A DNA stretch of 64,000 bases, taken from contig JAERTB010000005.1 in assembly GCA_016845225.1 (NCBI GenBank), positions 9,644 to 73,643 on the forward strand, written 5' to 3'. How positions within the stretch are numbered: the stretch's first letter is position 1; each line of letters begins with the position of its first letter. Of this stretch, positions 22,906 to 44,649 are shown in pieces. A program made the translations under genes and the position numbers. The notes beneath the pieces were generated by a model that searched no databases, was not told the origin of the DNA, and saw only the letters and a list, made by a program, of their open reading frames with translations. The stretch comes from Candidatus Woesearchaeota archaeon. Lineage in GTDB: Archaea > Nanobdellota > Nanobdellia > SCGC-AAA011-G17 > UBA489.

Positions 22906-22964
22906 GCTTTGCATGTTTATTAACCCTATTTATGTGCAATTTGAAGCCCTGCACATTTATTAAA
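22906..22964. repeat. Left-terminal array of 3 copies of a ~17-bp TTAAT-N-ATGTGCA(A/G) motif (orientation rev, fwd, rev)
   Basis: gctttgcatgtttattaa / ctatttatgtgcaa / cctgcacatttattaa. Inverted relative to the array at 31946-32008. Overlaps the transposase 3' end. Confidence 0.5.
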
Positions 22965-24044: not shown

Positions 24045-24208
24045 GTTATTTAGGTACCTAATAGGTTATTTAAATCTTTCGGTACCTAATGATAAGTACG
24101 ATAAGTGATGAAAATCAAAGTATTTCGCAAACTTTACGAAGTATTTAAGGCAAAACTTATAAATTAAAGTAGTTACTACAAAATAATAGTTAAACTATAT
24201 AGAATAAA

Positions 24209-25573: not shown

Positions 25574-26477
25574 ATCAAAATTAGAATGTAAATCCAATGA
25601 TTATACTAATTTAGAACCCTTTGAAAATGATTCTCCAATAAAATCATCAATATTAATTCCAGCATATAATGAAGAAGGGTATCTAAAAAATACTATTAAA
25701 GCTATAAATAACGCAATAGAGTATTCCAATAATCCTAATTTTTTTGAATTGATCATAGTTGATGATGGTTCTAAAAAAGATTTAACAACTATTTTAGAAA
25801 ATGAAGAAATATGTTGTAAAAAGGTTTTCCACCGCTTTCAAAAAAATAGAGGAAGATCTCTTGCAAGAAACAAAGCAATTGAATTATCTTCAAATGAATT
25901 AATCTTTTTCTTTGACAGTGATGTGCTGATTCAAAATAATTATTTTAATGAACACTGGAAGATTCATAATAAAACAAGAAATGCAATTGCAGTCGGTTTA
26001 GCGGAAAATATCTATGGGGGAGATAGAAGGATAAATAGATTTCTATCAGAAAATGCTCCAACACCAGATATTAAAAAAGATTTTAGAATTTATAAAGATA
26101 TAAGTAAATGGGCAGACGAAAACAGTAGAAAAGAATTTCATCTACTGAATGAAACAAACAATTTTAAGCATTGGGGGAATAATAAAAAAATAGATTTTTG
26201 GACATTGCCTTATATGGTGGTTTCACATAATATGAGTGTTTTATCAGAAAATGTTGAAGAAGTAAATGGTTTTGATGAAAGATTTAAGGGATGGGGTTGT
26301 GAAGATAGTTTCTTTGGTGCAAAGTTGATTTCTTCAGGAGGTTATGTAATCCCTGTTTTAAATTCTTCTGCATATAGGATAAAACACCCTCCAAGAGAAG
26401 GAGATGAAAATCAACGTAAAAAAGAGATGATGAATAATATGGATCTTTATGAGCTCTTGTTGGATGAAAAATGTTAG
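25563..26477 (+). CDS. Family-2 glycosyltransferase
   Basis: 304 aa. SILIPAYNEEGYL, IIVDDGS and DSD motifs. Start overlaps the upstream gene by 11 nt. Confidence 0.75.
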   Translation: MTIRSKLECKSNDYTNLEPFENDSPIKSSILIPAYNEEGYLKNTIKAINNAIEYSNNPNFFELIIVDDGSKKDLTTILENEEICCKKVFHRFQKNRGRSLARNKAIELSSNELIFFFDSDVLIQNNYFNEHWKIHNKTRNAIAVGLAENIYGGDRRINRFLSENAPTPDIKKDFRIYKDISKWADENSRKEFHLLNETNNFKHWGNNKKIDFWTLPYMVVSHNMSVLSENVEEVNGFDERFKGWGCEDSFFGAKLISSGGYVIPVLNSSAYRIKHPPREGDENQRKKEMMNNMDLYELLLDEKC

Positions 26478-27289
26478 AAGCAATATTAAAAAAAGAAAAT
26501 TATGAATTAGTTAATCAAGAGTTTTTAGGAAAAAGAAATTCTGTATTTAAAATTAATAATGGAAATAATTTTGCAATTTTAAAAATCTATCAAAATAAAT
26601 ATTTTCCTAATCAAAGAGAATATGAAGCGAATATCTTAGGAAATCTTTCAGGAAATATTGTCTTTCCTAAGATAATAAAATCAGACAAGGAAGGAGGACT
26701 AAATTACAACATTTTAACATTGATAGAGGGTAAAACATTATACGTTGAAAAGCAAGAGAATTATACTTCTTTGGTGGGAAATTATCTAAATTATCTGCAT
26801 AAACTAAAACCTGCAATATGTTCTAGAAAATTGGAAAATGATGAAAATAAAATTATGAAAAAAGCTTTTGCAAAAATAAATGATAAAAGCCTAGAGAATC
26901 TTTTTGAAAAGCAAGATATGAAGGGTAACAAGTCATTCATACATCATGATCCCCATTTCAGACACACGATAATATCTCAAGAAGGGATTGTCGGGATGAT
27001 AGATTGGGAAGATGCAAGATATGGTCATTTAGAAACAGATTACGCCTCATTTATTAAAGATCAAATAGAGACAGATTGTCCAATTTCAGAAATTTATGAA
27101 TTTTCTAAAAATTATAAGGAAAAACCAGAAAATCTATTGAAACATTTAGCTAAAATTTATTTAATCGATTTAGCATTTAAGGAAGGAATTCTTAATAAAT
27201 CTGACGCAAAAACAAAAGAAGTTATTAAAGTAATGCTTTCTAATGATTCTTTTGAAAAAACAATTGAGAGGATTTATGATGATTATTAA
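26471..27289 (+). CDS. Aminoglycoside/choline-kinase-like phosphotransferase (APH fold)
   Basis: 272 aa. Catalytic loop IHHDPHFRHTI and GMIDWEDARYG (D..W.D). Overlaps the upstream gene by 7 nt. Confidence 0.65.
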   Translation: MLEAILKKENYELVNQEFLGKRNSVFKINNGNNFAILKIYQNKYFPNQREYEANILGNLSGNIVFPKIIKSDKEGGLNYNILTLIEGKTLYVEKQENYTSLVGNYLNYLHKLKPAICSRKLENDENKIMKKAFAKINDKSLENLFEKQDMKGNKSFIHHDPHFRHTIISQEGIVGMIDWEDARYGHLETDYASFIKDQIETDCPISEIYEFSKNYKEKPENLLKHLAKIYLIDLAFKEGILNKSDAKTKEVIKVMLSNDSFEKTIERIYDDY

Positions 27290-28376
27290 TGTAACTGGTA
27301 AGAAAGGAAGTGGAAAAACAACTGCACTAAATTACTTTAATAATTTAGGATTTTCAACAGTAGAGTTATATGGCAAATTTCACGAACTTTTGAAAAATGG
27401 TAAATTAACAGAAAAAGAAAAAGAAGCTATAAACAAATGGGATGACTCCCAAATAAATGTGTTAAATGAACACTTATTAAAAAATTATAAAAAAAATATT
27501 ATATTTCTTGGAGGATTACTCAGAACAGAAGAATTAGATTTTTTGAAAAAAAATGATGAAGTTATAACTCTCAACATTGAAACTTCAAAAGATATTTCAA
27601 GATATGGCCGGCTTCTAAAAAGAGCTAGAAATTCAGAAGGAAATTACAGTTATGGGGATTTTTTAAGAAGAGATAAAAATCGTAATGGTGAAACAAAAGG
27701 ATATCATGAAAATAATTTATTGAAAATAATTGATCAATCTGATTTGATTGTTAAGAATAATCATTCCGTGCAGGATTTTGAAAAAGAGCTAGAGAAAGGA
27801 TTAATTAAGATTGGAGCAATATTACAAGAAGGCAAACCATGGTATGAAACTTCAAATAAATATGGCTCATTAAAAAATCAAATACTTTTTGCTATTGAAT
27901 CATTGATTGGAAAGAGAAAGGATGTTTTAGAAAGCATTGAAGATTTAGAAAGTGTAGTTTCCCTTGGTTGTGGATTAGGTACAGAGTTAGATTCAACACC
28001 CGCCAAAAGAAAATTAGGGATAGATTTATTACCTGAAACTTGGTTCAAAAACAGAGATTTTGAATACAAGAATGCAGATTACAAAAATACCTCAAATGCT
28101 GCAGACTTAGTTACACTTCTTAGAACAAATACCACTATCAGAAAAAATTCAAAAAAAGGGATAGAAAAAGGGATATCTCTTGCAAATGAATATTTTATTA
28201 TGAGTTTTGCAACTGCAGGGATAATGTATGATGGTTCAATAAAAAAATTCAAAAAAGCTTCCGATGGAAATTCTTTGGAGGGCCTATTTTCAGAAGTAAG
28301 AGAAGAATTAAACTTATACGGTGAAGTAAATGAAAAAATCACTCCTTTTGAGCATTATTTTATATTAAGGAAGTAA
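27243..28376 (+). CDS. P-loop kinase-like protein with unknown C-terminal domain
   Basis: 377 aa. N-terminal Walker A INVTGKKGSGKTT resembling dephospho-CoA/nucleoside kinases. Overlaps the upstream gene by 47 nt. Confidence 0.5.
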   Translation: MILLKKQLRGFMMIINVTGKKGSGKTTALNYFNNLGFSTVELYGKFHELLKNGKLTEKEKEAINKWDDSQINVLNEHLLKNYKKNIIFLGGLLRTEELDFLKKNDEVITLNIETSKDISRYGRLLKRARNSEGNYSYGDFLRRDKNRNGETKGYHENNLLKIIDQSDLIVKNNHSVQDFEKELEKGLIKIGAILQEGKPWYETSNKYGSLKNQILFAIESLIGKRKDVLESIEDLESVVSLGCGLGTELDSTPAKRKLGIDLLPETWFKNRDFEYKNADYKNTSNAADLVTLLRTNTTIRKNSKKGIEKGISLANEYFIMSFATAGIMYDGSIKKFKKASDGNSLEGLFSEVREELNLYGEVNEKITPFEHYFILRK

Positions 28377-28474
28377 TTTAATATTTTATGTTGTAATGCA
28401 GATTAAAAATCAACTAAAATGTCAAATTCTTGGGTACCTAAAATTATTTAAAGTTTAAAATTATACTAAAATCT

Positions 28475-28636
28475 ATGAAACTCCAAAAACAGCTTTCTAG
28501 AAAAGTTGGAGATAAGGATTATGCTAAGTGGGTTTTGGTAATTCCTCCGGAAATAATCAAGGAAGCATGTCTAAAAGAAGGTCAAGAGTTAAAGATCAAA
28601 GTAAAAGATAATAAACTAATAATTGAGAAAGAATAA
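28475..28636 (+). CDS. AbrB/MazE-type swapped-hairpin small DNA-binding protein (antitoxin-like)
   Basis: Hand-translated 53 aa (MKLQKQLSRKVGDKDYAKWVLVIPPEIIKEACLKEGQELKIKVKDNKLIIEKE). Pattern matches SpoVT/AbrB domain. Missed by the ORF track. Confidence 0.55.
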   Translation: MKLQKQLSRKVGDKDYAKWVLVIPPEIIKEACLKEGQELKIKVKDNKLIIEKE

Positions 28637-28637
28637 A

Positions 28638-28919
28638 ATGGCAAAGAGGAAGGAAATAAATGTTAATTGTTCTTTTGAAAGTTTTGAACCAAAAATAAAT
28701 AATAGAAATGGAGAATTAACACATTTTAGTACTGGAAGCATAGTTATAAAATCAAAAAACTTAATAGGTGTTTATGAACAACAAATAGATACAAATCCTC
28801 ATCCTCCTATATATGATTTGCACTTACAAGAAAGTTTAAGAGGATCTTCAAAAAATAAAAGACCAAAGAAATTCAAGTCGAAAATAATAAATAATCTAAA
28901 TCACCAAAAAATATATTAA
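28638..28919 (+). CDS. Hypothetical basic protein
   Basis: About 93 aa from the ATG at 28638, overlapping the stop of the AbrB-like gene. No motif. Confidence 0.3.
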   Translation: MAKRKEINVNCSFESFEPKINNRNGELTHFSTGSIVIKSKNLIGVYEQQIDTNPHPPIYDLHLQESLRGSSKNKRPKKFKSKIINNLNHQKIY

Positions 28920-28922
28920 AAA

Positions 28923-29591
28923 ATGGCAAAAAAAGATAATATCCAGATAAAGAAAAAATATTTAATAATTATTGGAATCGTTATGTTATTTGTTATTTTA
29001 TTTTTTCTTAATCAAAAAGAAATCTCAGAAAATGATTATAAAAAAGAGGACTATAAACAAGTCACAGCCTCTTACAAAGAAAAATTTTTAGAAACAAGAG
29101 TTGACATTTGCGAATTAGATGAATTTGGTTTTATGAGTGTAACGGGGGTTGTGAAAAATAAAGGAAATCTTAGAGTAAATGAAATTGATGTAGGTGTTGA
29201 TTTTTATAATGGTGAGACTGCAATAGATTATTCTAAGACAGGTGTCTTAAACATTCCTTCAAATGAAGAGAGAGTATTTAACACATTAAGTACAAGCACT
29301 AATAAAATAACGGAATGTAGGGCAAGCATAGTTATTTATCCTTGGGAGTATGAAGAAGAGCAAGAACAAATCAAAATAGAAACAACTATCCCTCAAAAAA
29401 CAGAGATTAAAGAAAGCACATTGTCCTCAACAGAAAAACAAACAATTTGTAATGATATTCTTGCTTATTTTGATTGGTGTTATGACAATAGTGTTTCTGC
29501 AGAAGACTGTGGCAATCAGGCACATGAAAAAGTTTTACGTCTTTATGATATAACCAATTCACAATTACAGGAGGTATTAGCATATTGCTAA
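28923..29591 (+). CDS. Membrane-anchored extracytoplasmic hypothetical protein
   Basis: 222 aa. Single N-terminal TM helix, Cys-containing C-terminal region. Confidence 0.35.
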   Translation: MAKKDNIQIKKKYLIIIGIVMLFVILFFLNQKEISENDYKKEDYKQVTASYKEKFLETRVDICELDEFGFMSVTGVVKNKGNLRVNEIDVGVDFYNGETAIDYSKTGVLNIPSNEERVFNTLSTSTNKITECRASIVIYPWEYEEEQEQIKIETTIPQKTEIKESTLSSTEKQTICNDILAYFDWCYDNSVSAEDCGNQAHEKVLRLYDITNSQLQEVLAYC

Positions 29592-29598
29592 AATAAAA

Positions 29599-29817
29599 AT
29601 GAAAGATAAATCGGTGGCAGTAATCCTAGCAGTTTTTTTAAGTTTTTGGACATGGTTATACACTTACAGCCTAAACTCAAAAAAATTTTGGATAGGCATT
29701 CTCGTAAGTATTTTCGGTATGATAGTATTAGGTTTTCTTGCACCTTTTGGTGTTTGGATATGGGCAATAGTAGATTCTGTTTCAAGAGACACCAAAGAAT
29801 ATAAGAAAATAAAATGA
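29599..29817 (+). CDS. Small two-TM membrane protein
   Basis: 72 aa, hydrophobic. Confidence 0.35.
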   Translation: MKDKSVAVILAVFLSFWTWLYTYSLNSKKFWIGILVSIFGMIVLGFLAPFGVWIWAIVDSVSRDTKEYKKIK

Positions 29818-29963
29818 ACAAAAAAGGCAATTGGAATCTTTCAGCAATCTTAGGGATATCTGCAGTGGGCTTAATCATAATCTCATTTACTGGAATTATT
29901 TCCAAACTTTGGATTTTTTTAGGTATCTTATTCTTGTTCTTAGCATTTAAAGCAAATCATTAG
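29814..29963 (+). CDS. Small two-TM membrane protein (ATGA-overlapped with upstream gene)
   Basis: Hand-translated 49 aa (MNKKGNWNLSAILGISAVGLIIISFTGIISKLWIFLGILFLFLAFKANH). Confidence 0.3.
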   Translation: MNKKGNWNLSAILGISAVGLIIISFTGIISKLWIFLGILFLFLAFKANH

Positions 29964-30040
29964 TTTTTCGCAAATTCTACGAAAATTTGTTAGAAAACAA
30001 TAAAAACATTAAAATAATATGTCTAATTAGAGGTTATAAT

Positions 30041-31030
30041 ATGAAAAAAGAGTTTAAAACAATTGATCTATTTGCAGGTGTTGGAGGAGTAAGATTAGCA
30101 TTCGAAAAAGCAGGTTTTTCAACAGTATTTGCAAACGATATAGATAAAAATTGTAAAAAAACTTACGACATAAATTTTAAAGATATTTATCTTCACGTAG
30201 AAGATATAAATAAACTAGATATTAATTCTATTCCAAAATTTGATATACTTCTCGGAGGTTTTCCTTGTCAGGCATTTAGTATTGCAGGATATAGGCAAGG
30301 ATTCAAAGATAAGAAAGGCAGAGGAAACTTATTTTTTAGAATTGCAGATATTCTTAAAGAAAGAAAACCTCAAGCAATACTTCTTGAAAATGTTAAGAAT
30401 TTGAAAGGACATGACAAGGGTAAGACTTTCAAAATAATTAAAGAAACTCTTGAAAAAGAATTAGGATACTACATTAGAACAGAAGTTCTAAACAGCATGA
30501 CACATGGTAACCTGCCACAAAATAGAGAAAGGATATTTATTGTAGGATTTTTAGATAAAAAGAAATGTGATGCGTTTGAGTTTCCTAAAAAAATAACTTT
30601 AACTAAAAAATGGAGCGAATTTGTGGAAAAAGAAGTAGATGATAAATATTACTACAACGACAAACCACTTTATAATAAAATTAAGAACGACATCAACTCA
30701 GAAGATAAAGTATATCAATGGCGTAGAAAATATGTTAGGGAAAATAAAAAAGGAGTTGTTCCAACACTAACCGCCAATATGGGCAGAGGAGGACATAATG
30801 TTCCAATAATAAAAACTGATAAAGGCATAAGGAAATTAACTCCAAAAGAATGTTTTTTAATCCAAGGATTCCCACAGTCTTTCATTCTTCCAAAAGATAT
30901 TTCAGATAGCGAGTTATACCATCAAGCAGGAAATAGCGTAACCATTCCGGTTATTCAAAGAATTGCAGAGAATATAAAATTAGTATTAGAAGAAAAAAGA
31001 ATAAGTGAACAAATCAAATTAAAAAATTAA
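30041..31030 (+). CDS. dcm: DNA (cytosine-5)-methyltransferase
   Basis: Motif I DLFAGVGG, motif IV GFPCQAFSIAG, motif VI ENVKNL, C-terminal QAGNSV. Start at internal ATG preceded by AGG. Confidence 0.9.
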   Translation: MKKEFKTIDLFAGVGGVRLAFEKAGFSTVFANDIDKNCKKTYDINFKDIYLHVEDINKLDINSIPKFDILLGGFPCQAFSIAGYRQGFKDKKGRGNLFFRIADILKERKPQAILLENVKNLKGHDKGKTFKIIKETLEKELGYYIRTEVLNSMTHGNLPQNRERIFIVGFLDKKKCDAFEFPKKITLTKKWSEFVEKEVDDKYYYNDKPLYNKIKNDINSEDKVYQWRRKYVRENKKGVVPTLTANMGRGGHNVPIIKTDKGIRKLTPKECFLIQGFPQSFILPKDISDSELYHQAGNSVTIPVIQRIAENIKLVLEEKRISEQIKLKN

Positions 31031-31863
31031 AGTTTTTTAAGAAAATCTTTCCAGTCTTTATCACTATTTTTCAATTTAGAAACAGATTTAACATATCTGT
31101 GCCCATCAAACTTTTGTCCAGGTATTTCTGTAACCTTTTCCAAATCATCAAAATATGAAATACCACATATCCAAATAGGGATTTTGTTTAATTTTTTAAT
31201 AGTTTTAAAACCATCATTTTTTTCTAAATACTCTCTAACCTTTCCAAAAAAAGAGTGTTCTCTCAAAATTCTAAATAAATGGTCTGATGGAAGGCCAACT
31301 CTTGCAAAAATATAAACATCACTTTTTCTCTCAACTCTTTCAACTTCATTGGATCCCAATACCAAATATGCGTTTTTCATTTTACTTGCTTTAACTCCAA
31401 CACCTAATTTAGGGTAGACAAATTTCCCCTTTTTTTTGATTCTATGAAAGTCTTGAGGGGTTATTTCTTCAGTATGCACCTCTTCGTCCAATTCTATATT
31501 TGTAGAAAATTTTTCGTTTAGGAATTTTTTTATTGCATGTTCCGCAAGAATCCCCAAAATAACATCGTCAGCTGCCTGGACCTCCGTTCTTTTTCCACGA
31601 ATTCCATGCAATGCAAGTCCTCCATAGACCATTTTTATTGCGAACTCAAAGCATTTTTCATATTCTTTCATTGAAAGATAAATTGTTCTACTTTCTTTCA
31701 AGTTTTTCCAATTGTCTAAATCAGATTTTTTGAACTTCCACCTATTTTTTTCCTTAAATGCAGAAATTTCTTCACTATTCTTAAAATAATTTTCAAATTC
31801 TTTTTTATCAATACCAAGATAATCCAATGCTTCTTTTGAGTTAAAAATCCCTTTTTTCAACAT
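31027..31863 (-). CDS. Putative Type II restriction endonuclease cognate to the Dcm methyltransferase
   Basis: 278 aa, no family match by eye. Convergent and 4-nt overlapped with the methyltransferase. Call is positional. Confidence 0.45.
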   Translation of the reverse strand: MLKKGIFNSKEALDYLGIDKKEFENYFKNSEEISAFKEKNRWKFKKSDLDNWKNLKESRTIYLSMKEYEKCFEFAIKMVYGGLALHGIRGKRTEVQAADDVILGILAEHAIKKFLNEKFSTNIELDEEVHTEEITPQDFHRIKKKGKFVYPKLGVGVKASKMKNAYLVLGSNEVERVERKSDVYIFARVGLPSDHLFRILREHSFFGKVREYLEKNDGFKTIKKLNKIPIWICGISYFDDLEKVTEIPGQKFDGHRYVKSVSKLKNSDKDWKDFLKKL

Positions 31864-34285: not shown

Positions 34286-35572
34286 TTAATTGGTTTTTAT
34301 TACATCTGAGAATTTCTTTGTTTTAGTTTTCTTCTTTTTACCTGATAAGATAAATACTAATATTGCTATCACTAGTAGCGGAAGTATAATTGCAACTATT
34401 GGAGCTGCATTCTCTTGTGCTTCTTCTTGATATTCCCCCGCTAAATCCCAAGGAATTACGTCTTTTACTGGAGATTCTGTTTCTGTTGTTTGTTCTGTCT
34501 CTGTGATGGTTACTTCTTGTTCAGGAAATAATTCTGTTTCAATTTTTTCTTCTATTATTACCTTAATATTTAATGTGGAAGAATATTCTTCATTGTAAAT
34601 TATTAAATCTCCAGAGTAATAATCTAGTGTAGGTGTTTTATCTTTATTTATTGAAATATAAATTGAAAAGTTTGAAAGAGGTCGGATTGAATTAATTGAA
34701 GTTTGTTGTAATGAGATTATTTGGTTTAGATTTCCTGTTAGTTTTATGTTTAAGTTGTTTAATGTGGTGTCTAATTTATTGTACATGTAAAGATTCCCTT
34801 CTTCTGAATCTTCTTTGTGGATTTGTTTAATTAATTTAGAACCTTCAATTCTAAACCCTATTGGGTCTTTTAGATATTCTTTAGTTTGAGTTGATTGATT
34901 TGATTCTTCTTGAGTTATTTGTTCTTCTACTAATATGGGAATTGTGTATTCTTTTGAATTAGAAATAAATTTTATTTCTGAAGTAAGTGCATTTGTAGTG
35001 TCGTAAGAAAATGTGAATGTTCTTGGAATGTTGGAAGTTAACGTTTGTTCAGTGATATATGGGTGTGCGACATATTCTGGTACCTGAAAGCTTATGGGTT
35101 CATCTGTTTGAGATTTTACAGTTATTTGAATTTGACCCTGTTTATCTAAGTTTAAATAGAAAAATCCAGGAGTGATTGCTATTGACGGTTGAGAATTTAA
35201 TATTGATATTGTTTCTTCTTGAGTTATTTGTTGTAAAACATTATTGATTAGAAATGATTGATCTTCTATTTTTAAAGTATGATCTCCGTCTTGAATTGTT
35301 TGAGAAATTTCAAAGTATAAAAAATAATGATTTGGAGAAATTTCTTTTAGAAATGGTGCTAATGGTTGTAATGTATTTTTTGAAGAATAAAGTTTGATAT
35401 CTTGGGGTTTTAGAGGATTTATTGGATTCTTTAAAATTATTTCTGTTTGGTAAACTTCTCCTTGAGAAAGTTGGGAAGTTAAAGGCGTTAATTGGATTAA
35501 GTCGTCTGTTTGTGCGAAAACTAAATTACCTGAAATTGTAAAAAGAAAAAGAAAAACTAAGGTTTTCTTCAT
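34286..35572 (-). CDS. Secreted T/Q/N-rich surface protein with C-terminal TM anchor and lysine tail
   Basis: 428 aa. Signal peptide, low-complexity beta-rich body, TM plus KKKKTKTKK tail. Confidence 0.4.
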   Translation of the reverse strand: MKKTLVFLFLFTISGNLVFAQTDDLIQLTPLTSQLSQGEVYQTEIILKNPINPLKPQDIKLYSSKNTLQPLAPFLKEISPNHYFLYFEISQTIQDGDHTLKIEDQSFLINNVLQQITQEETISILNSQPSIAITPGFFYLNLDKQGQIQITVKSQTDEPISFQVPEYVAHPYITEQTLTSNIPRTFTFSYDTTNALTSEIKFISNSKEYTIPILVEEQITQEESNQSTQTKEYLKDPIGFRIEGSKLIKQIHKEDSEEGNLYMYNKLDTTLNNLNIKLTGNLNQIISLQQTSINSIRPLSNFSIYISINKDKTPTLDYYSGDLIIYNEEYSSTLNIKVIIEEKIETELFPEQEVTITETEQTTETESPVKDVIPWDLAGEYQEEAQENAAPIVAIILPLLVIAILVFILSGKKKKTKTKKFSDVIKTN

Positions 35573-37386
35573 TTTCCACCAAGAAGTTTTCTTGCTTCAC
35601 TTAAAGATTTTTCAAGTTCTCTTTCTGCTGAAGATTTACCTTTTTTTGGAGGGGCTCTTCTTGCTTGGAATTTTGGTTGTGGAGAACCAAATCCTCCCGT
35701 TGGACCTTTTGGTTTGAATACTGGGGCGTTCCCAAATGTTCTTTTTGGTTTTGGTTTCTTATTAAAATAACTCTTGAATGCAATAAATGCTGCAATTCCA
35801 ACAAATAATATGATTAAGAATAATAGGAAAATTGTTCCGAATCCACTTTTTTCTTTTTGAGGTGCTAAGGACTCACATTCACAGTTGTAATTACAAATTT
35901 CTCCAGATAAACATGCGGAATCATCATAACCATCGCATTCTTCTCCAGCTTCTTGAATATCATTTCCACAATACGCTGAAGCTGTAGTTTCTCCACAATC
36001 TAGAGAACATGAAGATTCTTCTGAAGGTTGACATACATTGTCTCCACAGAAACAGTCATTAGGGCAATTTTGGTTTGTTTCACCAAAACTATAATCACAA
36101 ACACCGTCTTCAATACAAAGATCCTTGGTCGTGGTTTCACAATCAGAAGGGCAAGAATATTCATTTTCTGTTAAAGGATTACAGATATCATCTCCGCAAA
36201 TACTTTCATCTGAACTATCGTCTCCTGGAGGCGTTAATGTTTCTGGTAAATCTACAGAAGCGCCTGCAAACGCAGTGTAAAGAATTAGGGCGGTAGTCGC
36301 TTCATCTGCATCCCATGCACCTTCTTGATTTACTGAAGATTCTAAATAATCTATTGCTAATGTAATTTCTTCTGTTGATGCCGATGCAATTAAGCTCATT
36401 AACGCCATGCCTGTTTCAAAATTATTTTTGTTAAAGCTCCCATCTAATCTTTGTATGTCTAATAATTCTTGTAAGTATTTTGTTTTTTTACTTGGATCTG
36501 TTGTTGATAGATAAAGTAAAGAAGTGTCTACTGGTTTTAATGAATCATATGTGTCTAGTAAGTAAAGGTTTGTGTTTATTTCTGAATTTTTATTTGTTAA
36601 TACCCAGTTAGCCCATAATGAAGTATCTTTGTGGCATGTTGCTCCTTGTTTATGGCACGCATTAGGAATTTGTGTTTTGTATTTAGAAGTAGTTGCTTGT
36701 TCAGTTACATAATATGAAGAACCTGAATTGTAAATTATTGAGATTGTTGTTCCTTCTCCAATTGAAGAACAATCGATTGTTAGTTCAATTAAAGGATTGT
36801 TATCAATTAAATTATTTCCTGCAACACATCTGTTTAAATCAAAGAACGTTGGAGGTTGACCTGCAGTACATCCAGGGAATGTACCTTCATCAACTTGAAT
36901 GTCTACTTGTTCTAAAGTTTCTCCAGCAGGATATGCAATTGTACAAGTTTTATCTTGTGCTGAAGTGATGATTTCTAACCACCAGTTTCCTGCTAAACCA
37001 GTTCCTAATTCTGATTCAATGTAAGATTCTATTTCTGAAGTGTCTTCACCATAGTTGGATAATGCCCAGTATGCAATTGCAGTATCTTTAATGTTACAGT
37101 TTCCTTTTGGAAAACATGCTACTGTGTCCTTTTTTTCTGATTGAATATATTTTATTGCTTGCATACCATATGAATTACCGTAACCTGCAAGTTTCATAGC
37201 CATTGCGTAAAAAGAAGTTGCAAAAATACTATCATCACAGTTTCCGCCCTGACAGTGTTCAATCAACCACTCATAACTTGAGGTTGGATCAAAGTCTTCT
37301 GGTTCTTCTTCTGCTAATGTAAATGGGGTTAATAGAGATAGAATTAATATTGATGTTAATATGATTGCTAACTGTTTTTGCTTCAT
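35569..37386 (-). CDS. Secreted surface protein: alpha/alpha-toroid (prenyltransferase/terpene-cyclase-like) repeats plus Cys-rich modules, C-terminal TM
   Basis: 605 aa. Repeats such as SFYAMAMKLAGYG and AIAYWALSNYGED. About 30 Cys in CxxC/EGF-like spacing. C-terminal TM and basic tail. Confidence 0.4.
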   Translation of the reverse strand: MKQKQLAIILTSILILSLLTPFTLAEEEPEDFDPTSSYEWLIEHCQGGNCDDSIFATSFYAMAMKLAGYGNSYGMQAIKYIQSEKKDTVACFPKGNCNIKDTAIAYWALSNYGEDTSEIESYIESELGTGLAGNWWLEIITSAQDKTCTIAYPAGETLEQVDIQVDEGTFPGCTAGQPPTFFDLNRCVAGNNLIDNNPLIELTIDCSSIGEGTTISIIYNSGSSYYVTEQATTSKYKTQIPNACHKQGATCHKDTSLWANWVLTNKNSEINTNLYLLDTYDSLKPVDTSLLYLSTTDPSKKTKYLQELLDIQRLDGSFNKNNFETGMALMSLIASASTEEITLAIDYLESSVNQEGAWDADEATTALILYTAFAGASVDLPETLTPPGDDSSDESICGDDICNPLTENEYSCPSDCETTTKDLCIEDGVCDYSFGETNQNCPNDCFCGDNVCQPSEESSCSLDCGETTASAYCGNDIQEAGEECDGYDDSACLSGEICNYNCECESLAPQKEKSGFGTIFLLFLIILFVGIAAFIAFKSYFNKKPKPKRTFGNAPVFKPKGPTGGFGSPQPKFQARRAPPKKGKSSAERELEKSLSEARKLLGGK

Positions 37387-37468
37387 TAAAATAACCCCTT
37401 TTTGTTAAGTATTAAATTTGAAAGAGTATTTAAATAACTTTCTATGTAATGAGGGTAGAGGGCTTAAG

Positions 37469-38041
37469 ATGGCAAAGAAATTAACGTTTGGAGAAGTAAT
37501 TGGAAAAGGTAAAAGGGGCGTAGTTAGAGAGTGTACTTTTGATGGAAAGAAGTGTGCTGTTAAGGTTCCTACTGTTGAGAGTGATGCTATTTGTAGGATT
37601 TCTAATGAAAGTTATTGGTTGAAACGATTAAATGAGTATGGAATTGGCCCTAAATTTGTTTATGCTGATGATGAAGTGTTAGTTATGGAATTTTTGGATG
37701 GAGTTCATTTAGTTGATTACTTGAAGGTTGAAAAAGATGATAAAAAAATTAGAAAAGTGTTTAAGAAAATATTGAAAGAGTGTAGAGTTATGGATAAGTT
37801 GAAATTAAATAAGTTAGAAATGCATAGAATTACTAAGAATGCTATCGTTGTAGGTAATGATGTTGTGTTGATTGATTTTGAGAGATGTAAACGAGTTTTG
37901 GTTCCTAAGAATGTTACTCAGTTTTTTCAGTTTTTAATTAAGAGAGGTTTTGTTGATGGTTCTAAAATTTTGAAAGATTTGAAAAGATATAAAGAAGATA
38001 ATTCTGAAAAAAACTTTAAGGTTTTGGAGAAGTTTGTTTAG
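37469..38041 (+). CDS. Small atypical protein kinase (Bud32/RIO-like)
   Basis: Gly-rich loop IGKGKRGVV, AVK lysine, DFE(R) metal-binding region. Length about 190 aa fits Bud32. Confidence 0.55.
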   Translation: MAKKLTFGEVIGKGKRGVVRECTFDGKKCAVKVPTVESDAICRISNESYWLKRLNEYGIGPKFVYADDEVLVMEFLDGVHLVDYLKVEKDDKKIRKVFKKILKECRVMDKLKLNKLEMHRITKNAIVVGNDVVLIDFERCKRVLVPKNVTQFFQFLIKRGFVDGSKILKDLKRYKEDNSEKNFKVLEKFV

Positions 38042-39443
38042 GTTTTTTCTTAACAACTTTCTTTTTAGAAACTCTCTTTCTTGTTGTTTTTTTCTTAACA
38101 ACTTTCTTTTTAGTATTCTTTTGGGCTTCAAATCTCATTTTAATTAATGTATAATTTAGAGGGTTCTTTATTTTTGCACACAAACCGTCTGGAGAACATA
38201 TACCTAATGCTTTGTAATATCCTTCGTTTGCACAGTTTGGAGGGAGTAGCGAAGCTGAACGATTAACTGCATTTAATTGTGCTATAAGATATCCTTCCCT
38301 TACAGGATCTCCATTTTTCTTATTCCATTCATCCATCTTATGTTTAATTTCTTCAGGAGAATAGTTTAAACTTTTTAAGAAATTAAGTAAAATGAATAAA
38401 GACCTTTTCTTTCCGTCTTCTTTTATTCCTTCTAATGCTTTCTTTACACAAGGAGGATAATATTCTTCTTTTACTAATTTATTATCTACAACTACTGCTT
38501 CAAAGTTTTTCTTTTCCGGTTGTGCAAAATAATCTTTTCCTTGAACAACTATTGTGGACTTTCTTGTTAATTTAGAATCTTTATTGGGCGCATCAAATGC
38601 CTGAATCAACAATGATCTTGCTTCTGGTTCTACTGGTTTTTTTAAGAATTTGATATCAGTGTTTACGTTTTCTATTTTTGCCTGTCCTAGTTTGAATCTG
38701 TTTATGTTGTTTGGATCAACAGGTACACTAATTAACCCTGATTTTTCATTAACCGAATAAACTGAACGAAATAGATGTCTTGAAGAGATTAATATTGTGT
38801 CTATGTCTACTATTGCAAATGGGTTGAATTTTCCATCAAGAGTTATTTCTTCAATTGATTTGCCTGTGAATTTTGAAATTTCTTCAATTGTTGCTTCCGA
38901 TAAAATCTTTTCAGATAATTTATCAAAAATCATGTTTCCTAAAAAATCTGCTATTTTTCTTGGACCTTCAGGAAATAATTGACTTGTTGGTTTACCATCT
39001 ATTTCTTTAGGAAATGCTTCAAATGGGATAATTATATGGAATCCTTTTCTTCCACTGAACTTGACTCCAAATGATTTGATATTGTAGAACTTTAAGGCTT
39101 CAATTAGTAAGAATGTTGTGATCTGGGAGTATTCTACGTATGCTGAATCAATATCTAGAACACAATCCCATCCGCTTCTTAATGCATTTAATTCTTTTCT
39201 GGGCATTCCTGTGACTATCTGTAAGGGATTGCTCCAGCGTTCTTCAGATACGTGGAATGAAGAAGCTCCGCTCCTAGCGAATTCAAATACGTCTGAGCCA
39301 TATTGTAGTATATCTGGACGTTTGCCAAATCCTCCGTCACTATACCTTACTGCTACCTCTCTATCTTTAGCTAAGTCTAGAATAGCATTTTGAATAGGTT
39401 TACGAGCATAAAATTTTAGAAGATTTTCAAAGTCTAAGGCCAT
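38016..39443 (-). CDS. priS: DNA primase: PriS catalytic subunit fused to PriL-CTD-like Fe-S domain, lysine-rich tail
   Basis: PriS motifs WDCVLDIDS, SGRKGFHIIIP and RHLFRSVYSVNEKSG. C-terminal PPCVKK plus three further Cys (CANEGYY...GICSPDGLC) resembling the PriL CTD. KKVVKKK tail. Confidence 0.8.
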   Translation of the reverse strand: MALDFENLLKFYARKPIQNAILDLAKDREVAVRYSDGGFGKRPDILQYGSDVFEFARSGASSFHVSEERWSNPLQIVTGMPRKELNALRSGWDCVLDIDSAYVEYSQITTFLLIEALKFYNIKSFGVKFSGRKGFHIIIPFEAFPKEIDGKPTSQLFPEGPRKIADFLGNMIFDKLSEKILSEATIEEISKFTGKSIEEITLDGKFNPFAIVDIDTILISSRHLFRSVYSVNEKSGLISVPVDPNNINRFKLGQAKIENVNTDIKFLKKPVEPEARSLLIQAFDAPNKDSKLTRKSTIVVQGKDYFAQPEKKNFEAVVVDNKLVKEEYYPPCVKKALEGIKEDGKKRSLFILLNFLKSLNYSPEEIKHKMDEWNKKNGDPVREGYLIAQLNAVNRSASLLPPNCANEGYYKALGICSPDGLCAKIKNPLNYTLIKMRFEAQKNTKKKVVKKKTTRKRVSKKKVVKKKPKQTSPKP

Positions 39444-39497
39444 GGATAAAGGATGCTATAGGCTGTTTAAATAGATTTTGAGCTTAGAATTGAGGTG

Positions 39498-39944
39498 TTA
39501 ATGGTTGCAATTAGGACCGTGAACGTGAGGTTCTTGTTTTGGAGAAAGCTCTGCTAATTCGTTATTTAAAGTGTTTAACTTTTGATAACTCTCTTCAATT
39601 TCTCCCTCTAATTGTGTAAGAATTTTATTTAGTTCTACTAATTGTTTATCAACTAGTTCGCTTGACTCTTTGATTGGTTTTTCTATTACTACGTTTGAAC
39701 CAATGTTAACTAGAACGTTAGTATTATCTTTTAATTCTGATTTTAAGAAAATTCCAGAACCAATTGGAGTATTCATTGAGGATCCAACTTTAGTTTTTAG
39801 AATGTTTTCTATGTTTTCTTTTAGAGAAGTAAATTCAACCATTTGTTTTTCAACAGTTGCTTTCTTTTGTTGTAAGTGATTGATAGCTTGCTCTAGCATC
39901 TGGAATTCCATGTACTTATTTCTTAGAATTGTTTCGTCTGTCAT
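39498..39944 (-). CDS. pfdA: Prefoldin alpha subunit
   Basis: 148 aa. Coiled coil, double beta-hairpin (GSGIFLKSELKDNTNVLVNIGSNVVIE), coiled coil. Confidence 0.75.
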   Translation of the reverse strand: MTDETILRNKYMEFQMLEQAINHLQQKKATVEKQMVEFTSLKENIENILKTKVGSSMNTPIGSGIFLKSELKDNTNVLVNIGSNVVIEKPIKESSELVDKQLVELNKILTQLEGEIEESYQKLNTLNNELAELSPKQEPHVHGPNCNH

Positions 39945-39981
39945 TTTTTATTTTTTTGTTTTTCAGTATTTAAGTTTTGTG

Positions 39982-42009
39982 TTATGGTAATAGCATTACA
40001 GGCACTGCCGGTGCAATTGAGTATATTTCTGAGTTTATTTCTAAATCTTCTTCTGAAGAAGTTACAAATGAGAAATATACGGTTTTTCCTATGTAATTCT
40101 GATTGTTTGGGATTGTCCAAGTTACTGTACTTGTCCCATTCAAGTTTAATTGAGATTGAGCATTTGAAAATCCATAATTAGTTGAATTTGACAACATATT
40201 TTTGAATATTTGATTATATTCTAAAGGAATTTCTCTCCTATCTGGCAAGGTTAATGGAGGAGTCATACTATCAGACATAAGTAAAGTATAATTTTTATTT
40301 GGATTTAAATGATCTGTCAAAGAAATATTTATTGTTGTTCCAATTTGTACTAAATTGTTTACAGTTATATTTGCTTGTGAATTTTCTTCAATGTTCAGGC
40401 TAGTTTCTACTTGATTGTTGGTTTCATTTAGTTCATAAATTGAATTGTTTGGATCTATGTTTACTTTTACCAGATATTCTTCAAATTTAGGAAATATGTG
40501 ATTAATTACTGCAGTATAATTCTCTCCAGGAGAAATATTTGCAATGTTTATTCCTGCACCTTTTCCATCACCAAACTCGATTCTCCCTTCAATGTTTTCT
40601 GCAAAAATTGTTCCTTGGTTTTCAATATTGTAAACAAAAGAAAACTTTCTAGGATTTATTGGATCTTGTTTCTTAAAAATTAAAACTGGAGATAAATCAG
40701 GAGTGCCATTTACAAAGATAGTCATTGTTCCTTTGTTGTTTGATTCATTTGATTCTTGAATAAGGTCTTGAGGATCCAATTCAAAATAAAATGTGTAATA
40801 TCCTCCTAAATCATAAGTGTGATTAATTAAAATGTTTAAACTTTCCCCCGCATTAAGATTTCTTGAGTTACTTCCATTTGGATAATCAAAATTATATTTC
40901 CATTCAAAGGTACTTACTGGACCACTTCCCAAATTTGCTATTGTGATGTTTGCAGTTACAGTCTCTCCGATTTCTACATAGTTAGGTAGGTAAGTCATAT
41001 CTAAAATTTTTAAATCTGGTAAACTTTGATTTGAATAAGTTTCTATAGTATTAAAATTGTAATTTGGAGAAGGATCTGCATATTTATTTAACCTTACTTC
41101 GTAAACATAAATATCAGTACTGTGGTTTGGGCCTAATCCAAAGAAAACACTTTCTGTACCTTGTGTATTTGAAGTTCCTTGCCAATTAAATTTATCGTTT
41201 CCATTTTGAATTGTTAAATTATTTCTTGTTGAATTCCAAAGAAATGTGGAATCTACTATTGCCCCATTCATGTTTACGCCTATATTCTGGCTAGCTATTC
41301 CCCCTTTATCAGAAGTAATCCATAATGCATCTGCCCCTGCATTTGCATGATTCATCCAATGGAAATATCCCCCAGTAGAATCTGATTGTGAATCTGCAAA
41401 TCCAAATGAATGATAATCTCCGTCATTATTTCTAACTTTTTTTGTTCTCATCCATAAATCTAAATTATCTGCTTGATCAAATTTCTTTATTGACTTTAGA
41501 TAGGAAGTTCCATGTAATGCGTAAGCATAACCATTTGTTTCTACCCAATCCGAAGTATTTGTCCAAATTGATGAATCAATTATACCATCTTCAAAATCAT
41601 CTGCTAAAATGAATGAGGATTTTAGATCACTTGTTGATTGGACTGATTCATTTCCAAAATATAAATACAGTTTAGCATGACCGTTAGGATCTAATTTCGG
41701 AAGTTTTACCCAGACTTCTGCAGAAATGTTGTTGCTAGATTCTACCCAATACGGGATTGTCTGAGTTCCATCAATATTTGTAAATCTTATATCTTCAAAA
41801 TTTTCTTGCATATTTGATTCATAAGGAATTGTTAACTGGAGAGAATAGTCTGAAAGATTGTTTCCAGAGAGTTCTTGAACATCTAACAATCTTCTGTTTT
41901 GCCAATTAGGATCCCACCAATTTGATGCAGAAACAATACTAGAAGTTAATATAATGATAAATAAAGAAAGGATTAGAAATTTTGAAAGTTTTTTTGTTGT
42001 GTTTTGCAT
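39982..42009 (-). CDS. Large secreted surface protein (DUF2341-like N-terminal W..W..R motif, CARDB-like Ig domains)
   Basis: 675 aa. Signal peptide, WWDPNWQNRRLL, LamG-like middle, repeated Ig-like segments with NxT/S sequons. Confidence 0.4.
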   Translation of the reverse strand: MQNTTKKLSKFLILSLFIIILTSSIVSASNWWDPNWQNRRLLDVQELSGNNLSDYSLQLTIPYESNMQENFEDIRFTNIDGTQTIPYWVESSNNISAEVWVKLPKLDPNGHAKLYLYFGNESVQSTSDLKSSFILADDFEDGIIDSSIWTNTSDWVETNGYAYALHGTSYLKSIKKFDQADNLDLWMRTKKVRNNDGDYHSFGFADSQSDSTGGYFHWMNHANAGADALWITSDKGGIASQNIGVNMNGAIVDSTFLWNSTRNNLTIQNGNDKFNWQGTSNTQGTESVFFGLGPNHSTDIYVYEVRLNKYADPSPNYNFNTIETYSNQSLPDLKILDMTYLPNYVEIGETVTANITIANLGSGPVSTFEWKYNFDYPNGSNSRNLNAGESLNILINHTYDLGGYYTFYFELDPQDLIQESNESNNKGTMTIFVNGTPDLSPVLIFKKQDPINPRKFSFVYNIENQGTIFAENIEGRIEFGDGKGAGINIANISPGENYTAVINHIFPKFEEYLVKVNIDPNNSIYELNETNNQVETSLNIEENSQANITVNNLVQIGTTINISLTDHLNPNKNYTLLMSDSMTPPLTLPDRREIPLEYNQIFKNMLSNSTNYGFSNAQSQLNLNGTSTVTWTIPNNQNYIGKTVYFSFVTSSEEDLEINSEIYSIAPAVPVMLLP

Positions 42010-42014
42010 TGGTC

Positions 42015-42440
42015 TTATTTTTTTGTAGCGGTTTTCTTAACTACTTTTTTGACGGTTTTCTTTGTAACTTTTTTCACAACTTTTTTTACTTTTGGTTTTT
42101 CTTCTTTTTTTTCAACCTTAGGTTTTGCAACTTTCTTAGGTTTTTCTTTTGAATGTGATTTTCTAACTCTTCTAGGGCGTTCAGTCTTTTTTGTTTTTGG
42201 TTTTGTAGTTTTAACATCGATGTTTAAAGTTTTGAATGCAGTTGCTACTTTAGCATGTGCATCTCCTTTTTTAATATCTAAGGTTTTGTTAAGTGGTTCT
42301 AAATGATTTATACTACACTTTCTTCTTCTTGTTTCTCCATCAATTAATACGAAGTTAGAATCAATTTTTTCAACAACAACAGCTTTCTTTCCAGCGTCTC
42401 TTCCTGCTATTTTAACGCAAACTCTTCCTACATCAATCAT
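42015..42440 (-). CDS. rpl14e: 50S ribosomal protein L14e with KKVVKK lysine-repeat tail
   Basis: MIDVGRVCVKIAGRDAGKKAVVVEKIDSNFVLIDG matches eL14. C-terminal VKKVVKKVTKKTVKKVVKK. Confidence 0.85.
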   Translation of the reverse strand: MIDVGRVCVKIAGRDAGKKAVVVEKIDSNFVLIDGETRRRKCSINHLEPLNKTLDIKKGDAHAKVATAFKTLNIDVKTTKPKTKKTERPRRVRKSHSKEKPKKVAKPKVEKKEEKPKVKKVVKKVTKKTVKKVVKKTATKK

Positions 42441-42712
42441 TGTTCTTCCTCTCTTGCTTTAGTAATTAGTAATTTTCTTGTTGCCTTAGAAGATAAAACT
42501 CCACCATAAGGTCTTTCAGGTCTTCTTTTTGACTTAGAGATTGTTTGTAACTTTGCTGATCTTGCTTGAGGCACTGCTTGTAAAGGTTTACCAGTCACAG
42601 CACACACTACTCTAGATGATCTTTTTTGCTTTACAGTTACTTTTGATCTTCCACCAGGTAAACGAATTGTCTGCTTTCCCTTGGTCTTAGAATTTACTGA
42701 TTTTCCTGCCAT
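42437..42712 (-). CDS. rpl34e: 50S ribosomal protein L34e
   Basis: 91 aa. eL34-like N-terminus and central region with one Cys. Conserved position before L14e. Confidence 0.85.
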   Translation of the reverse strand: MAGKSVNSKTKGKQTIRLPGGRSKVTVKQKRSSRVVCAVTGKPLQAVPQARSAKLQTISKSKRRPERPYGGVLSSKATRKLLITKAREEEQ

Positions 42713-42770
42713 TGTGTGATTTAGTTCTAAAATTTGATTTAAAAAGTTTTGGGTAGCTAGAAGCGCTGTA

Positions 42771-43238
42771 TTAGTGAATTTTAAGGATTTTACGGATAAT
42801 TATGCTAAAGAACACCGCTGATAGAAAATAAGTTCCTAACCAACCTAATCCTGTGCCAAATAACGGAACATTTGCACTCCAAGTGATAATATCTCCCATT
42901 TCTGAAAATTTTGCTCTTAACCATCCAAATACAATAATTAAAGGTATGAAAGTGATCATAGTTGGCTTCATACTTAGTTTCATATATTGTAAATTTTTAG
43001 CCATTGCTTTCTTTTGAATTTTCATGAATTTTTCTGGATTATCTCTCAGAGTTTTCATTTCTTTTTGAAGTTCTTTTAGTTCTTTTTTTAGAGCCTTCAT
43101 TAAATGCTGATCTGTGAAAAATTTATAGAATAAATTAATCATAAGTGTTAATAAAACTGAGACTAAAATTACAGCCCACGCTGCACCTAACTTCATGAAT
43201 GGTTGAAATAACCAATCGAAAAAACTTTCTAACACCAT
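42771..43238 (-). CDS. DUF106/EMC3-like membrane insertase homologue (archaeal Oxa1 superfamily)
   Basis: 155 aa. Three TM helices with a charged coiled-coil loop. Conserved position between secY and L34e. Confidence 0.65.
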   Translation of the reverse strand: MVLESFFDWLFQPFMKLGAAWAVILVSVLLTLMINLFYKFFTDQHLMKALKKELKELQKEMKTLRDNPEKFMKIQKKAMAKNLQYMKLSMKPTMITFIPLIIVFGWLRAKFSEMGDIITWSANVPLFGTGLGWLGTYFLSAVFFSIIIRKILKIH

Positions 43239-43242
43239 CTTT

Positions 43243-44649
43243 TTATTTCTCCATCATCTTTCTTAATGCTGGATGCATATCCATCATATGTTGTTGTGCG
43301 ATCTCCTCGTATAGTTTGTAAATAATCATTACTGCTAGTAAGATACCTGTTCCATTTGCTAATGCTCCAAGTAAATCTGCTGATGCTGCTAAAACTCCGA
43401 TAGCCACTCCTCCAAGCACTGTTAATGAAGGAATGTACCTATTTAAGATTGCTTCTAAAACTCTTGGATCTCTTCTGAATCCTGGAATTTGTAAACCTGA
43501 TGCCATCATCTTCTTTGCCTGTGCTGCCGCATCCATTCCTGCAGTTTGAACCCAGAAAACTGAGAATAAAACTGCTCCGCCAACCATTAATGCCATGTAA
43601 ACTACTGCATGTGCAATATCTATTCCTGCTAATGATCCAGTAATCATTCCATGGACAAGATTTGGAGGATATATCCATGCAACTAAACCTGATGAAGGGG
43701 TGTTTCCTGCAAAAGTACCTAGTATAGGTTTACCCCAATTTTCTAATAGTCTCGCCCATAATTGGATGTTAGCTAAAAGTGCTGCTGTTAAAATAACTGG
43801 GATGTTTGAAGTATATAAGAAATTTAATGGCCATCTCATTCCGTGACCCCTTACTCTTCCGAAAGATAGAGGGATTTGAATTTTCATGGATTGTGCATAC
43901 ACTGAAAATATGAAAATAAATATTGTTGCTAAAATTGCTGCTAAAGCTAATCCTGCACCCAATGGATTTCTACCCATTAATGATTGGAAAAATACCCAAA
44001 CTTGTCCAATTGGTGCTTGGCCTGAACCGAATGCCCAACTACCAATACTGTTTAGTGGAGAAAGTGCTCTTACGAAAATTGAACTTGACACCCCTGCAGC
44101 GATGAATAGTGAAACACCTGAACCAAATCCATATTTATTGATAACTTGATCCATGTAAAGAACCATGAAACCTCCCAAGATTAATTGAAACACTAATGTA
44201 AATTGCATAAGTAAATATGAAGAAGTTCCTAATAATTCTGATGCTGGTGCTAATCCGCCCAAGAACACATAAATAAATGCTTCAAATACAATAAAGAATA
44301 CAGTCATTACTTTTTGTAAACCTTGAAAAAACATTTTTCCATCTGGGGTGTTTGTATCGATTTTTAATATACCTGAACCTGTTAATAATTGAAGTACGAT
44401 GGATGCTGTTACAATAGGGCCAATACCTAAGGACATGATGGAACCAAAACTTGCTCCAAGAATAATTGAAAGTGATTCAAATTGAGAAAGTGCGTTTTGA
44501 CCTAAACCGAATAAAGGAATTATGGATAAAACAAAGAATGCAACTAGAATTAATAATGTCCATTTTAGTTTTACTTTGAATCCAAGTCTTTTTTCAGAAG
44601 GACCCCTTACTTCGGGAAAAATATTTGCTACTTTTTCAAAAAATTTCAT
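43243..44649 (-). CDS. secY: Preprotein translocase SecY
   Basis: 468 aa, 10 TM. Conserved SecY blocks and position after L15. Confidence 0.95.
   Translation of the reverse strand: MKFFEKVANIFPEVRGPSEKRLGFKVKLKWTLLILVAFFVLSIIPLFGLGQNALSQFESLSIILGASFGSIMSLGIGPIVTASIVLQLLTGSGILKIDTNTPDGKMFFQGLQKVMTVFFIVFEAFIYVFLGGLAPASELLGTSSYLLMQFTLVFQLILGGFMVLYMDQVINKYGFGSGVSLFIAAGVSSSIFVRALSPLNSIGSWAFGSGQAPIGQVWVFFQSLMGRNPLGAGLALAAILATIFIFIFSVYAQSMKIQIPLSFGRVRGHGMRWPLNFLYTSNIPVILTAALLANIQLWARLLENWGKPILGTFAGNTPSSGLVAWIYPPNLVHGMITGSLAGIDIAHAVVYMALMVGGAVLFSVFWVQTAGMDAAAQAKKMMASGLQIPGFRRDPRVLEAILNRYIPSLTVLGGVAIGVLAASADLLGALANGTGILLAVMIIYKLYEEIAQQHMMDMHPALRKMMEK

Follow-up and report, generated by a model that had tools for sequence, protein, structure and literature searches.

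Already in 2005 a fusion of the PriS catalytic domain with the PriL Fe-S domain was noted in N. equitans (Iyer et al. 2005, as cited in PMC3914693). The fusion was later extended to other nanosized Archaea (Raymann et al. 2014; PMC3914693) and was described as a synapomorphy of the Undinarchaeota and the DPANN Cluster 2 (Dombrowski et al. 2020; PMC7414124). Separate priS and priL genes are absent in this clade according to published data, and in N. equitans the fused gene is the only primase in the genome (PMC10250227). Since the fusion is a textbook feature of this archaeal clade, the architecture described here is already known: it was reported in 2005 and characterised biochemically in N. 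equitans in 2023.

The N. equitans protein, NEQ395 (AAR39242.1), is a monomeric [4Fe-4S] primase whose primers measure about 9 nt (Schneider, Bergsch and Lipps 2023; PMC10250227). Initiation, unlike elongation, depends on its PriL domain, the two domains are inactive in trans, and the cluster is dispensable in vitro (PMC10250227). The linker sets the local concentration and the primer length, and the primer length distribution is tuned by the length of the linker (PMC10250227). Mutagenesis covered H58, D87, D89, S119, K122, H125, D194, H202 and R205 in the PriS domain as well as C289, R301, R303, F306, C364, C376 and C384 in the PriL domain (PMC10250227). A D87/D89 double mutant was inactive, and mutants of R301, R303 and F306 had lost priming but kept elongation (PMC10250227).

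A complete gene for such a fused PriS-PriL(CTD) primase is located at 38016..39443 on the minus strand of the window, by which we mean the whole stretch of 64 kb of DNA that was analysed; the coordinates of the protein domains, motifs and promoter element given below refer to the same strand. The initial annotation had placed the open reading frame exactly: it begins with ATG, comprises 475 amino acids plus a stop codon and is open across all 475 codons in the ORF list. The proposal that it encodes a DPANN-type fusion of PriS and PriL-CTD in a single polypeptide is borne out by matches to Pfam, NCBIfam and PDB profiles, by a two-domain AlphaFold2 (AF2) model and by more than 1500 full-length relatives. 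The protein is very probably the replicative DNA primase of the cell, in the single-chain form of Nanoarchaeota and Woesearchaeota (DPANN Cluster 2), and an orthologue-type relative of NEQ395. A TATA-like box (tatttaaa, 39466..39473), read from the sequence, lies 23–30 nt upstream of the ATG, which suggests that the primase gene may have its own promoter and possibly gives rise to a leaderless mRNA.

A structure prediction had been proposed as a check and gave two ordered domains connected by a flexible linker and followed by a flexible tail. The full-length AF2 model, built on an alignment of 116 sequences, has a mean pLDDT of 90; these 116 sequences, the window protein and 115 full-length relatives, are also the basis of all conservation counts. 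The PriS/AEP catalytic domain (residues ~1–285, 38589..39443; PF01896, AF2 and Foldseek) is an ordered alpha/beta domain with a pLDDT mostly of 91–98. It is followed by a variable inter-domain linker (residues ~286–324, 38472..38588) with a low pLDDT of 57–68 and no consensus in the family alignment. The ordered PriL-CTD-like helical module (residues ~325–450, 38094..38471) was delimited by NCBIfam PriL, the Pyrococcus abyssi PriL chain 9f26_B and AF2. The protein ends with a Lys/Arg-rich, disordered tail (residues ~451–475 plus the stop codon, 38016..38093), which was recognised by its pLDDT of 50–57 and its K/R fraction. From motif III to the first cysteine there are 105 amino acids in the window protein compared to a family median of 95.

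The catalytic part scores 28.1 bits with PF01896 (DNA_primase_S) at residues 109–243, above the curated cut-off of 26.8. A Foldseek search with the AF2 model shows that the N-domain has an AEP fold; PDB matches of the full model include Prim-PolC, the LigD polymerase, human Pri1 and P. abyssi PriS with E-values of 5e-8 to 3e-5. All three PriS catalytic motifs which the initial annotation had reported are present, with D97/D99, H136 and D215 invariant in 116 of 116 sequences, following the AEP definitions of motif I (hhhDhD/E), motif II (sxH) and motif III (hD/E) (PMC10250227). The metal-binding aspartates of motif I, D97-I-D99 within V95-L-D97-I-D99, are encoded at 39147..39155. The motif II region, S130-G-R-K133-G134-F-H136, lies at 39036..39056, and S130 is as invariant as H136. 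Motif III with D215 (I214-D215) and the nucleotide-binding residues H223 and R226 is located at 38766..38801; here R222, H223 and R226 also occur in all 116 sequences, and H64 is likewise invariant in this alignment.

The PriL-like part is recognised by NCBIfam PriL models at residues ~310–458 (E 1.5e-9 and 2.3e-8), and these matches all lie in the last third of the model, at positions ~211–360 of 360. The Pfam model PF04104 (DNA_primase_lrg) remains below its threshold in the window protein (residues 303–405, 19.3 bits against a cut-off of 22.4, E 7.7e-4) and exceeds it in about 40 of the 120 best relatives out of more than 1510. In a single-sequence search of PDB sequences the sole significant match was P. 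abyssi PriL (9f26_B, E 1e-6), which the family profile found with E 8e-8. The initial annotation had described a PPC motif and three further cysteines near the C-terminus, and C332, C404, C416 and C422 indeed align one-to-one with the four cysteines of P. abyssi PriL in the motifs FPPC, PPNC, LCxPD (LCTPD) and xxCK..NPxxY. The putative first [4Fe-4S] ligand, in P330-P331-C332 (38448..38456), aligns with the FPPC of P. abyssi and is found in 116 of 116 sequences. The putative ligands 2–4, P401-P-N-C404...C416...C422 (38178..38243), correspond to PPNC..LCTPD..C; C404 and C422 are conserved in all 116 sequences and C416 in 101. In addition, the counterpart of the initiation residues of NEQ395 forms a segment at 38397..38411, in which K346 and R347 are shared by all sequences and F350 by at least 90 % of them. 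The family consensus has Arg instead of K345.

An AF2 model of the CTD taken separately reached a pLDDT of 90.6 and a pTM of 0.85. Its best structural fits are the Fe-S domains of yeast and human PriL, with TM-scores of 0.46–0.48 and weak E-values. The N-terminal, PriS-binding domain of PriL is absent, as the matches to the PriL models begin at about position 211 of 360, and only ~40 low-confidence residues lie between the two folded domains of the AF2 model.

The likeness to NEQ395 covers the whole layout: in both, one polypeptide comprises, from the N-terminus onwards, a PriS domain, a linker and a four-Cys PriL-CTD, and it lacks the PriL N-terminal domain. The residues examined in NEQ395 correspond to H64, D97, D99, S130, K133, H136, D215, H223, R226, C332, K345, R347, F350, C404, C416 and C422 of the window protein, a mapping made by local spacing and family invariance and not by sequence alignment. 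Both proteins share the spacings D-x-D, S-3-K-3-H and D-8-H-3-R in the PriS domain and R/K-x-R-xx-F (i, i+2, i+5) in the PriL domain, where the position of R301 is occupied by Lys in the window protein. The cysteines are spaced by 72, 12 and 6 residues, close to the 75, 12 and 8 residues in NEQ395. However, with 475 amino acids the window protein is 82 residues longer than NEQ395 (393 amino acids), and its linker is a low-confidence segment of ~40 amino acids whereas a long helix (251–280) was modelled in NEQ395. After the last cysteine 53 residues follow, compared to 9 after C384 in the published numbering of NEQ395, and a helix at 428–449 and the basic tail appear to be missing there. Furthermore, the window derives from a mesophile-type, low-GC, Woesearchaeota-like genome and NEQ395 from a hyperthermophile. 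Among the fused primases of the Undinarchaeota and the DPANN Cluster 2 (PMC7414124; PMC3914693), to which the window protein belongs, it differs only by a tail longer than the median. At the level of the sequence it has all the features that characterise this family.

More distant relatives are the heterodimeric primases. With P. abyssi PriS/PriL (PDB 9f26/9f28) the window protein shares the AEP fold (9f28_A, E 1.8e-5; 9f26_A, E 3.1e-5) and the four-Cys pattern FPPC, PPNC, CxPD..C and NPxxY of the PriL CTD. In contrast to the window protein, canonical PriS and PriL are encoded by two genes and comprise the PriL N-terminal domain and the PriS zinc motif. Canonical PriS, as known from structures of Pyrococcus and Sulfolobus, carries a zinc-binding Cys/His motif. 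No Cys/His cluster of this kind was found in residues 1–290 of the window protein, where the only such residues are C94, H64, H136 and H223; C94 is not conserved (Leu in 80 of 116 sequences), and the three histidines are all catalytic or NTP-binding. The catalytic core fold is also common to the eukaryotic PRIM1/PRIM2 (p49/p58) primase, with human Pri1 matching at ~1e-6, and the structural fits of the CTD mentioned above concern the p58C [4Fe-4S] domain (PDB 3q36, 5f0q, 3lgb) and the yeast PriL-CTD. Compared to the eukaryotic enzyme, the window protein is a fusion instead of a heterodimer, has a far smaller size, contains none of the eukaryotic insertions and has no Pol alpha partner; the identity is 13–16 %.

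The distribution of the family was determined by searches of protein clusters and of GTDB genomes. A word-indexed search found more than 1510 homologous clusters at 90 % identity; the best 120 of them are all 413–502 amino acids long and, where named, were assigned to Nanoarchaeota, Woesearchaeota or Nanoarchaeia, and about 40 of these 120 carry both PF01896 and PF04104 in the precomputed Pfam annotation. An exhaustive search of representatives at 50 % identity yielded 686 clusters with E <= 1e-3, of which 302 reach E <= 1e-30, nearly all of them matching end-to-end. Relatives occur in at least 583 GTDB species genomes, and the top 80 belong to MAGs of Woesearchaeota, Nanoarchaeota or Pacearchaeota. 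The initial annotation had called the fusion rare and lineage-restricted. The restriction to a lineage, i.e. to MAGs of Nanoarchaeota and Woesearchaeota, was confirmed, but with more than 1510 clusters and at least 583 GTDB species genomes the architecture is abundant and not rare, and the fusion is the norm within its clade.

The window itself (~31 % GC) is part of a cellular archaeal chromosome. It contains genes for Orc1/Cdc6, FtsZ, a diphthamide synthase, a class-I LysRS, SecY, L3 and L4 (ribosomal-protein operon) and a prefoldin, as well as seven tRNAs; elsewhere in the window a DDE transposase and a C5 methylase are encoded. The SecY shares 74 % identity with the SecY of a Nanoarchaeia MAG. 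Upstream of the primase the order SecY, EMC3/YidC-like protein, KOW protein, prefoldin and primase recurs in ~24–29 of 80 related loci, many of which are incomplete, and this recurrence favours a vertically inherited housekeeping gene over the primase of a mobile element. No second PriS- or PriL-like open reading frame was detected in the 64-kb window by a six-frame hmmsearch with family HMMs of the N- and C-domains, nor was another PriS or PriL found by a Pfam scan of 30 other ORFs of the window. The statement of the initial annotation that the window holds no separate priL therefore stands, and the stand-alone priL for which it had suggested a search was not found in these 64 kb.

Different explanations for the gene have to be weighed against a function as replicative primase. 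A repair-type primase-polymerase resembling PrimPol, the LigD polymerase or Prim-PolC, which serves gap filling or NHEJ and not replication priming, could be suspected because the best Foldseek E-values of the full model (5e-8 to 5e-7) belong to Prim-PolC and LigD polymerase domains and a weak Pfam match to LigD_Prim-Pol (E 0.013) exists. However, at 13–15 % identity these structural matches reflect the compact AEP core which all of these proteins share. Repair AEPs lack a PriL-CTD Fe-S module, whereas the window protein possesses a predicted one including counterparts of the initiation residues of NEQ395, and neither a ligase nor a Ku gene is adjacent to the primase. The homologous NEQ395 is a true primase and the only one in its genome (PMC10250227), and we regard a repair function as very unlikely. 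An origin from a mobile element or virus, comparable to PolpTN2 of pTN2, ORF904 of pRN1 or the helix-bundle phage AEPs, is even harder to reconcile with the data and highly improbable. It is true that fused PriS/PriL-like proteins are known from archaeal plasmids (PMC3973330; PMC3914693), that the AEP fold is common to viral AEPs and that the transposase and the methylase are encoded in the same window. PolpTN2 of the Thermococcus nautilus plasmid pTN2 (Gill et al. 2014; PMC3973330) combines a PriS-like and a PriL-CTD-like part in one chain, but it is plasmid-borne, arose independently and shows no similarity in sequence with the fused primases of nanosized Archaea (PMC3914693), whereas the gene of the window is chromosomal and syntenic. 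Against a mobile element also speak the synteny with SecY, YidC-like, KOW and prefoldin genes conserved in many related genomes, the presence in at least 583 species genomes of one lineage and the neighbourhood of the primase, which includes no helicase or integrase; the matches of the viral fold search are remote (TM <= 0.38, identity <= 17 %).

An artefact was also considered, in which a mistake in sequencing or assembly, or the loss of a stop codon, would have joined a priS gene to a short priL gene next to it; a precedent of sorts is one nanohaloarchaeon in which a pair of neighbouring genes aligns to the fused primase (PMC3914693). Yet independent Logan contigs of the two separate sequencing runs SRR13374099 and SRR13374101 encode the identical 475-aa protein, the frame is open throughout, a relative of the same length is 96 % identical, and hundreds of relatives at 40–70 % identity share the equally continuous fused architecture, which leaves this explanation with practically no probability. 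The mobile-element, repair-polymerase and mis-assembly explanations were all rejected.

The present analysis establishes the domain identities, the conservation of residues, the catalytic-domain fold, the distribution and the chromosomal housekeeping context. The replicative primase favoured here would act as inferred from NEQ395, i.e. as a monomer with priming activity and a bound cluster and possibly with a role for its tail. The PriS domain (~1–285) would synthesise the RNA primer by polymerising NTPs on ssDNA, with D97, D99 and D215 as predicted metal ligands and H64, S130, K133, H136, H223 and R226 predicted to hold the elongating NTP. The PriL-CTD (~325–450) probably carries a [4Fe-4S] cluster on C332, C404, C416 and C422. 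Furthermore, K345, R347 and F350 are the predicted site for the initiating nucleotide or the 5′-triphosphate end, which would make the formation of a dinucleotide possible. In the absence of the PriL N-terminal domain, nothing but the flexible linker of ~40 amino acids connects the two modules; this covalent connection would replace the tether otherwise provided by the PriL-NTD and may limit the length of the primer.

The KKVVKK tail pointed out by the initial annotation is real and occurs as KKKVVKKK twice, encoded by two perfect 26-nt direct repeats (38043–38068 and 38088–38113, together 38043..38113, no strand assigned) with a spacing of 45 nt. The closest relatives in the 116-sequence alignment have a single copy, which points to a recent duplication. 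Lys and Arg make up a fraction of 0.52 of the last 29 residues (447–475, slightly beyond the tail) compared to 0.15 of residues 1–440. The 53 residues after the last cysteine (family median 32) consist of a confident helix at 428–449, which also aligns with P. abyssi PriL, and the Lys-rich tail, and the 45-nt-spaced duplication accounts for the above-median tail length of the window copy. A basic tail is present family-wide with a median K/R fraction of 0.41, and 82 % of the longer tails have a fraction of 0.3 or more. These are the small new points of this analysis: the basic tail is a property of the family, and in the window copy it has been lengthened by a perfect duplication. The tail is not discussed in the NEQ395 paper, in which the word "tail" is absent (PMC10250227). 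By analogy the Lys-rich disordered tail would most likely add non-specific affinity for DNA. It is conceivable, though on balance rather doubtful, that the tail and the helix 428–449 form a functional element for DNA tethering or replisome docking in Woesearchaeota-type fused primases, which would partly compensate the lost PriL N-terminal domain and whose length would be tuned by slippage or duplication.

As a discovery the gene carries little weight since single-chain primases have already been published as a hallmark of the Nanoarchaeota-type DPANN Archaea. Its practical value is that of a taxonomic marker, which places the window in the DPANN Cluster 2. For the family, the window protein represents a natural variant of the minimal archaeo-eukaryotic primase in which the linker is longer and the basic tail is long, and it could serve to test the influence of linker length and DNA-binding appendages on primer length in the NEQ395 system. 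If the tail indeed acts as a docking element, the published NEQ395 model would not be fully representative of the family.

The fused primase gene is located at the end of a ribosomal-protein/SecY cluster. Upstream of it, genes for SecY, an EMC3/YidC-like protein, a KOW protein and prefoldin form a string of conserved order on the minus strand (39498-44649). Among 80 related loci (L001-L080, the best 80 of at least 583 GTDB species genomes encoding a primase relative), about 24-29 share this order up to the primase. Linkage of replication and translation genes has been described in Archaea (PMC2643942), and the placement of the primase next to the SecY cluster resembles it. Between the KOW gene and prefoldin lies a gene for a 675-aa surface-type protein with DUF2341 and CARDB domains (39982-42009, minus strand). 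Because a counterpart is absent from all 80 loci (best 80 of at least 583), this gene was probably inserted into the otherwise conserved SecY-to-primase string in a lineage-specific manner.

On the other side, a small RIO/Bud32-like kinase gene (37418-38041, plus strand) is convergent with the primase, and the two 3' ends overlap by 26 nt (38016-38041); 16 of the best 80 of at least 583 related loci also have this kinase close to the primase. Immediately downstream of this pair follows a 605-aa ORF (35569-37386, minus strand), relatives of which occupy an equivalent relative position in 15 of these loci (again the best 80 of at least 583). Its translation, read by eye, displays a signal-like N-terminus, Cys-rich repeats of the CGDxxC type, a C-terminal TM segment and a basic tail. 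A Pfam scan gave no match for this ORF or for the adjoining 428-aa ORF (34286-35572, minus strand).

Farther away, an Orc1/Cdc6 gene with AAA_22 and Cdc6 lid domains (2031-3110, plus strand) is separated from the primase by 35 kb, and a replication origin may lie in its vicinity. The stretch 22926-31863 comprises a DDE transposase (22926-24044), NUDIX-GT2 and GT2 glycosyltransferases, an HTH protein and a C5 cytosine methylase (29987-31030), and it may represent a variable or acquired island; the GC content at 24-30 kb is 0.275-0.286 versus about 0.31-0.34 elsewhere in the window.

Among the fused-primase relatives retrieved by protein homology searches, six from outside the window (P0122, P0129, P0173, P0234, P0267 and P0165; 727-1019 aa) carry an intein with Intein_splicing and LAGLIDADG_3 domains, mostly within the PriS catalytic domain; in P0234 it lies closer to the PriL-CTD junction. 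P0198 (769 aa) is instead extended at its C-terminus by an alpha/beta-hydrolase, perhaps through a gene-calling fusion. Several public MAG records encoding the DPANN-type fused primase (loci L006, L013, L026, L027, L050 and others) are entitled 'uncultured Methanosarcinales archaeon' or 'Candidatus Omnitrophica bacterium'; probably the titles are wrong or the contigs were mis-binned.

The Lys/Arg-rich tail of the primase itself contains a perfect 26-nt direct repeat in two copies (38043-38068 and 38088-38113), 45 nt (15 codons) apart, so that KKKVVKKK is encoded twice. Its closest relatives possess a single copy, and P0001, a relative with 96% identity, departs from the window protein within the second copy and at its very C-terminal end. 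The primase tail appears to evolve fast via duplication or slippage.
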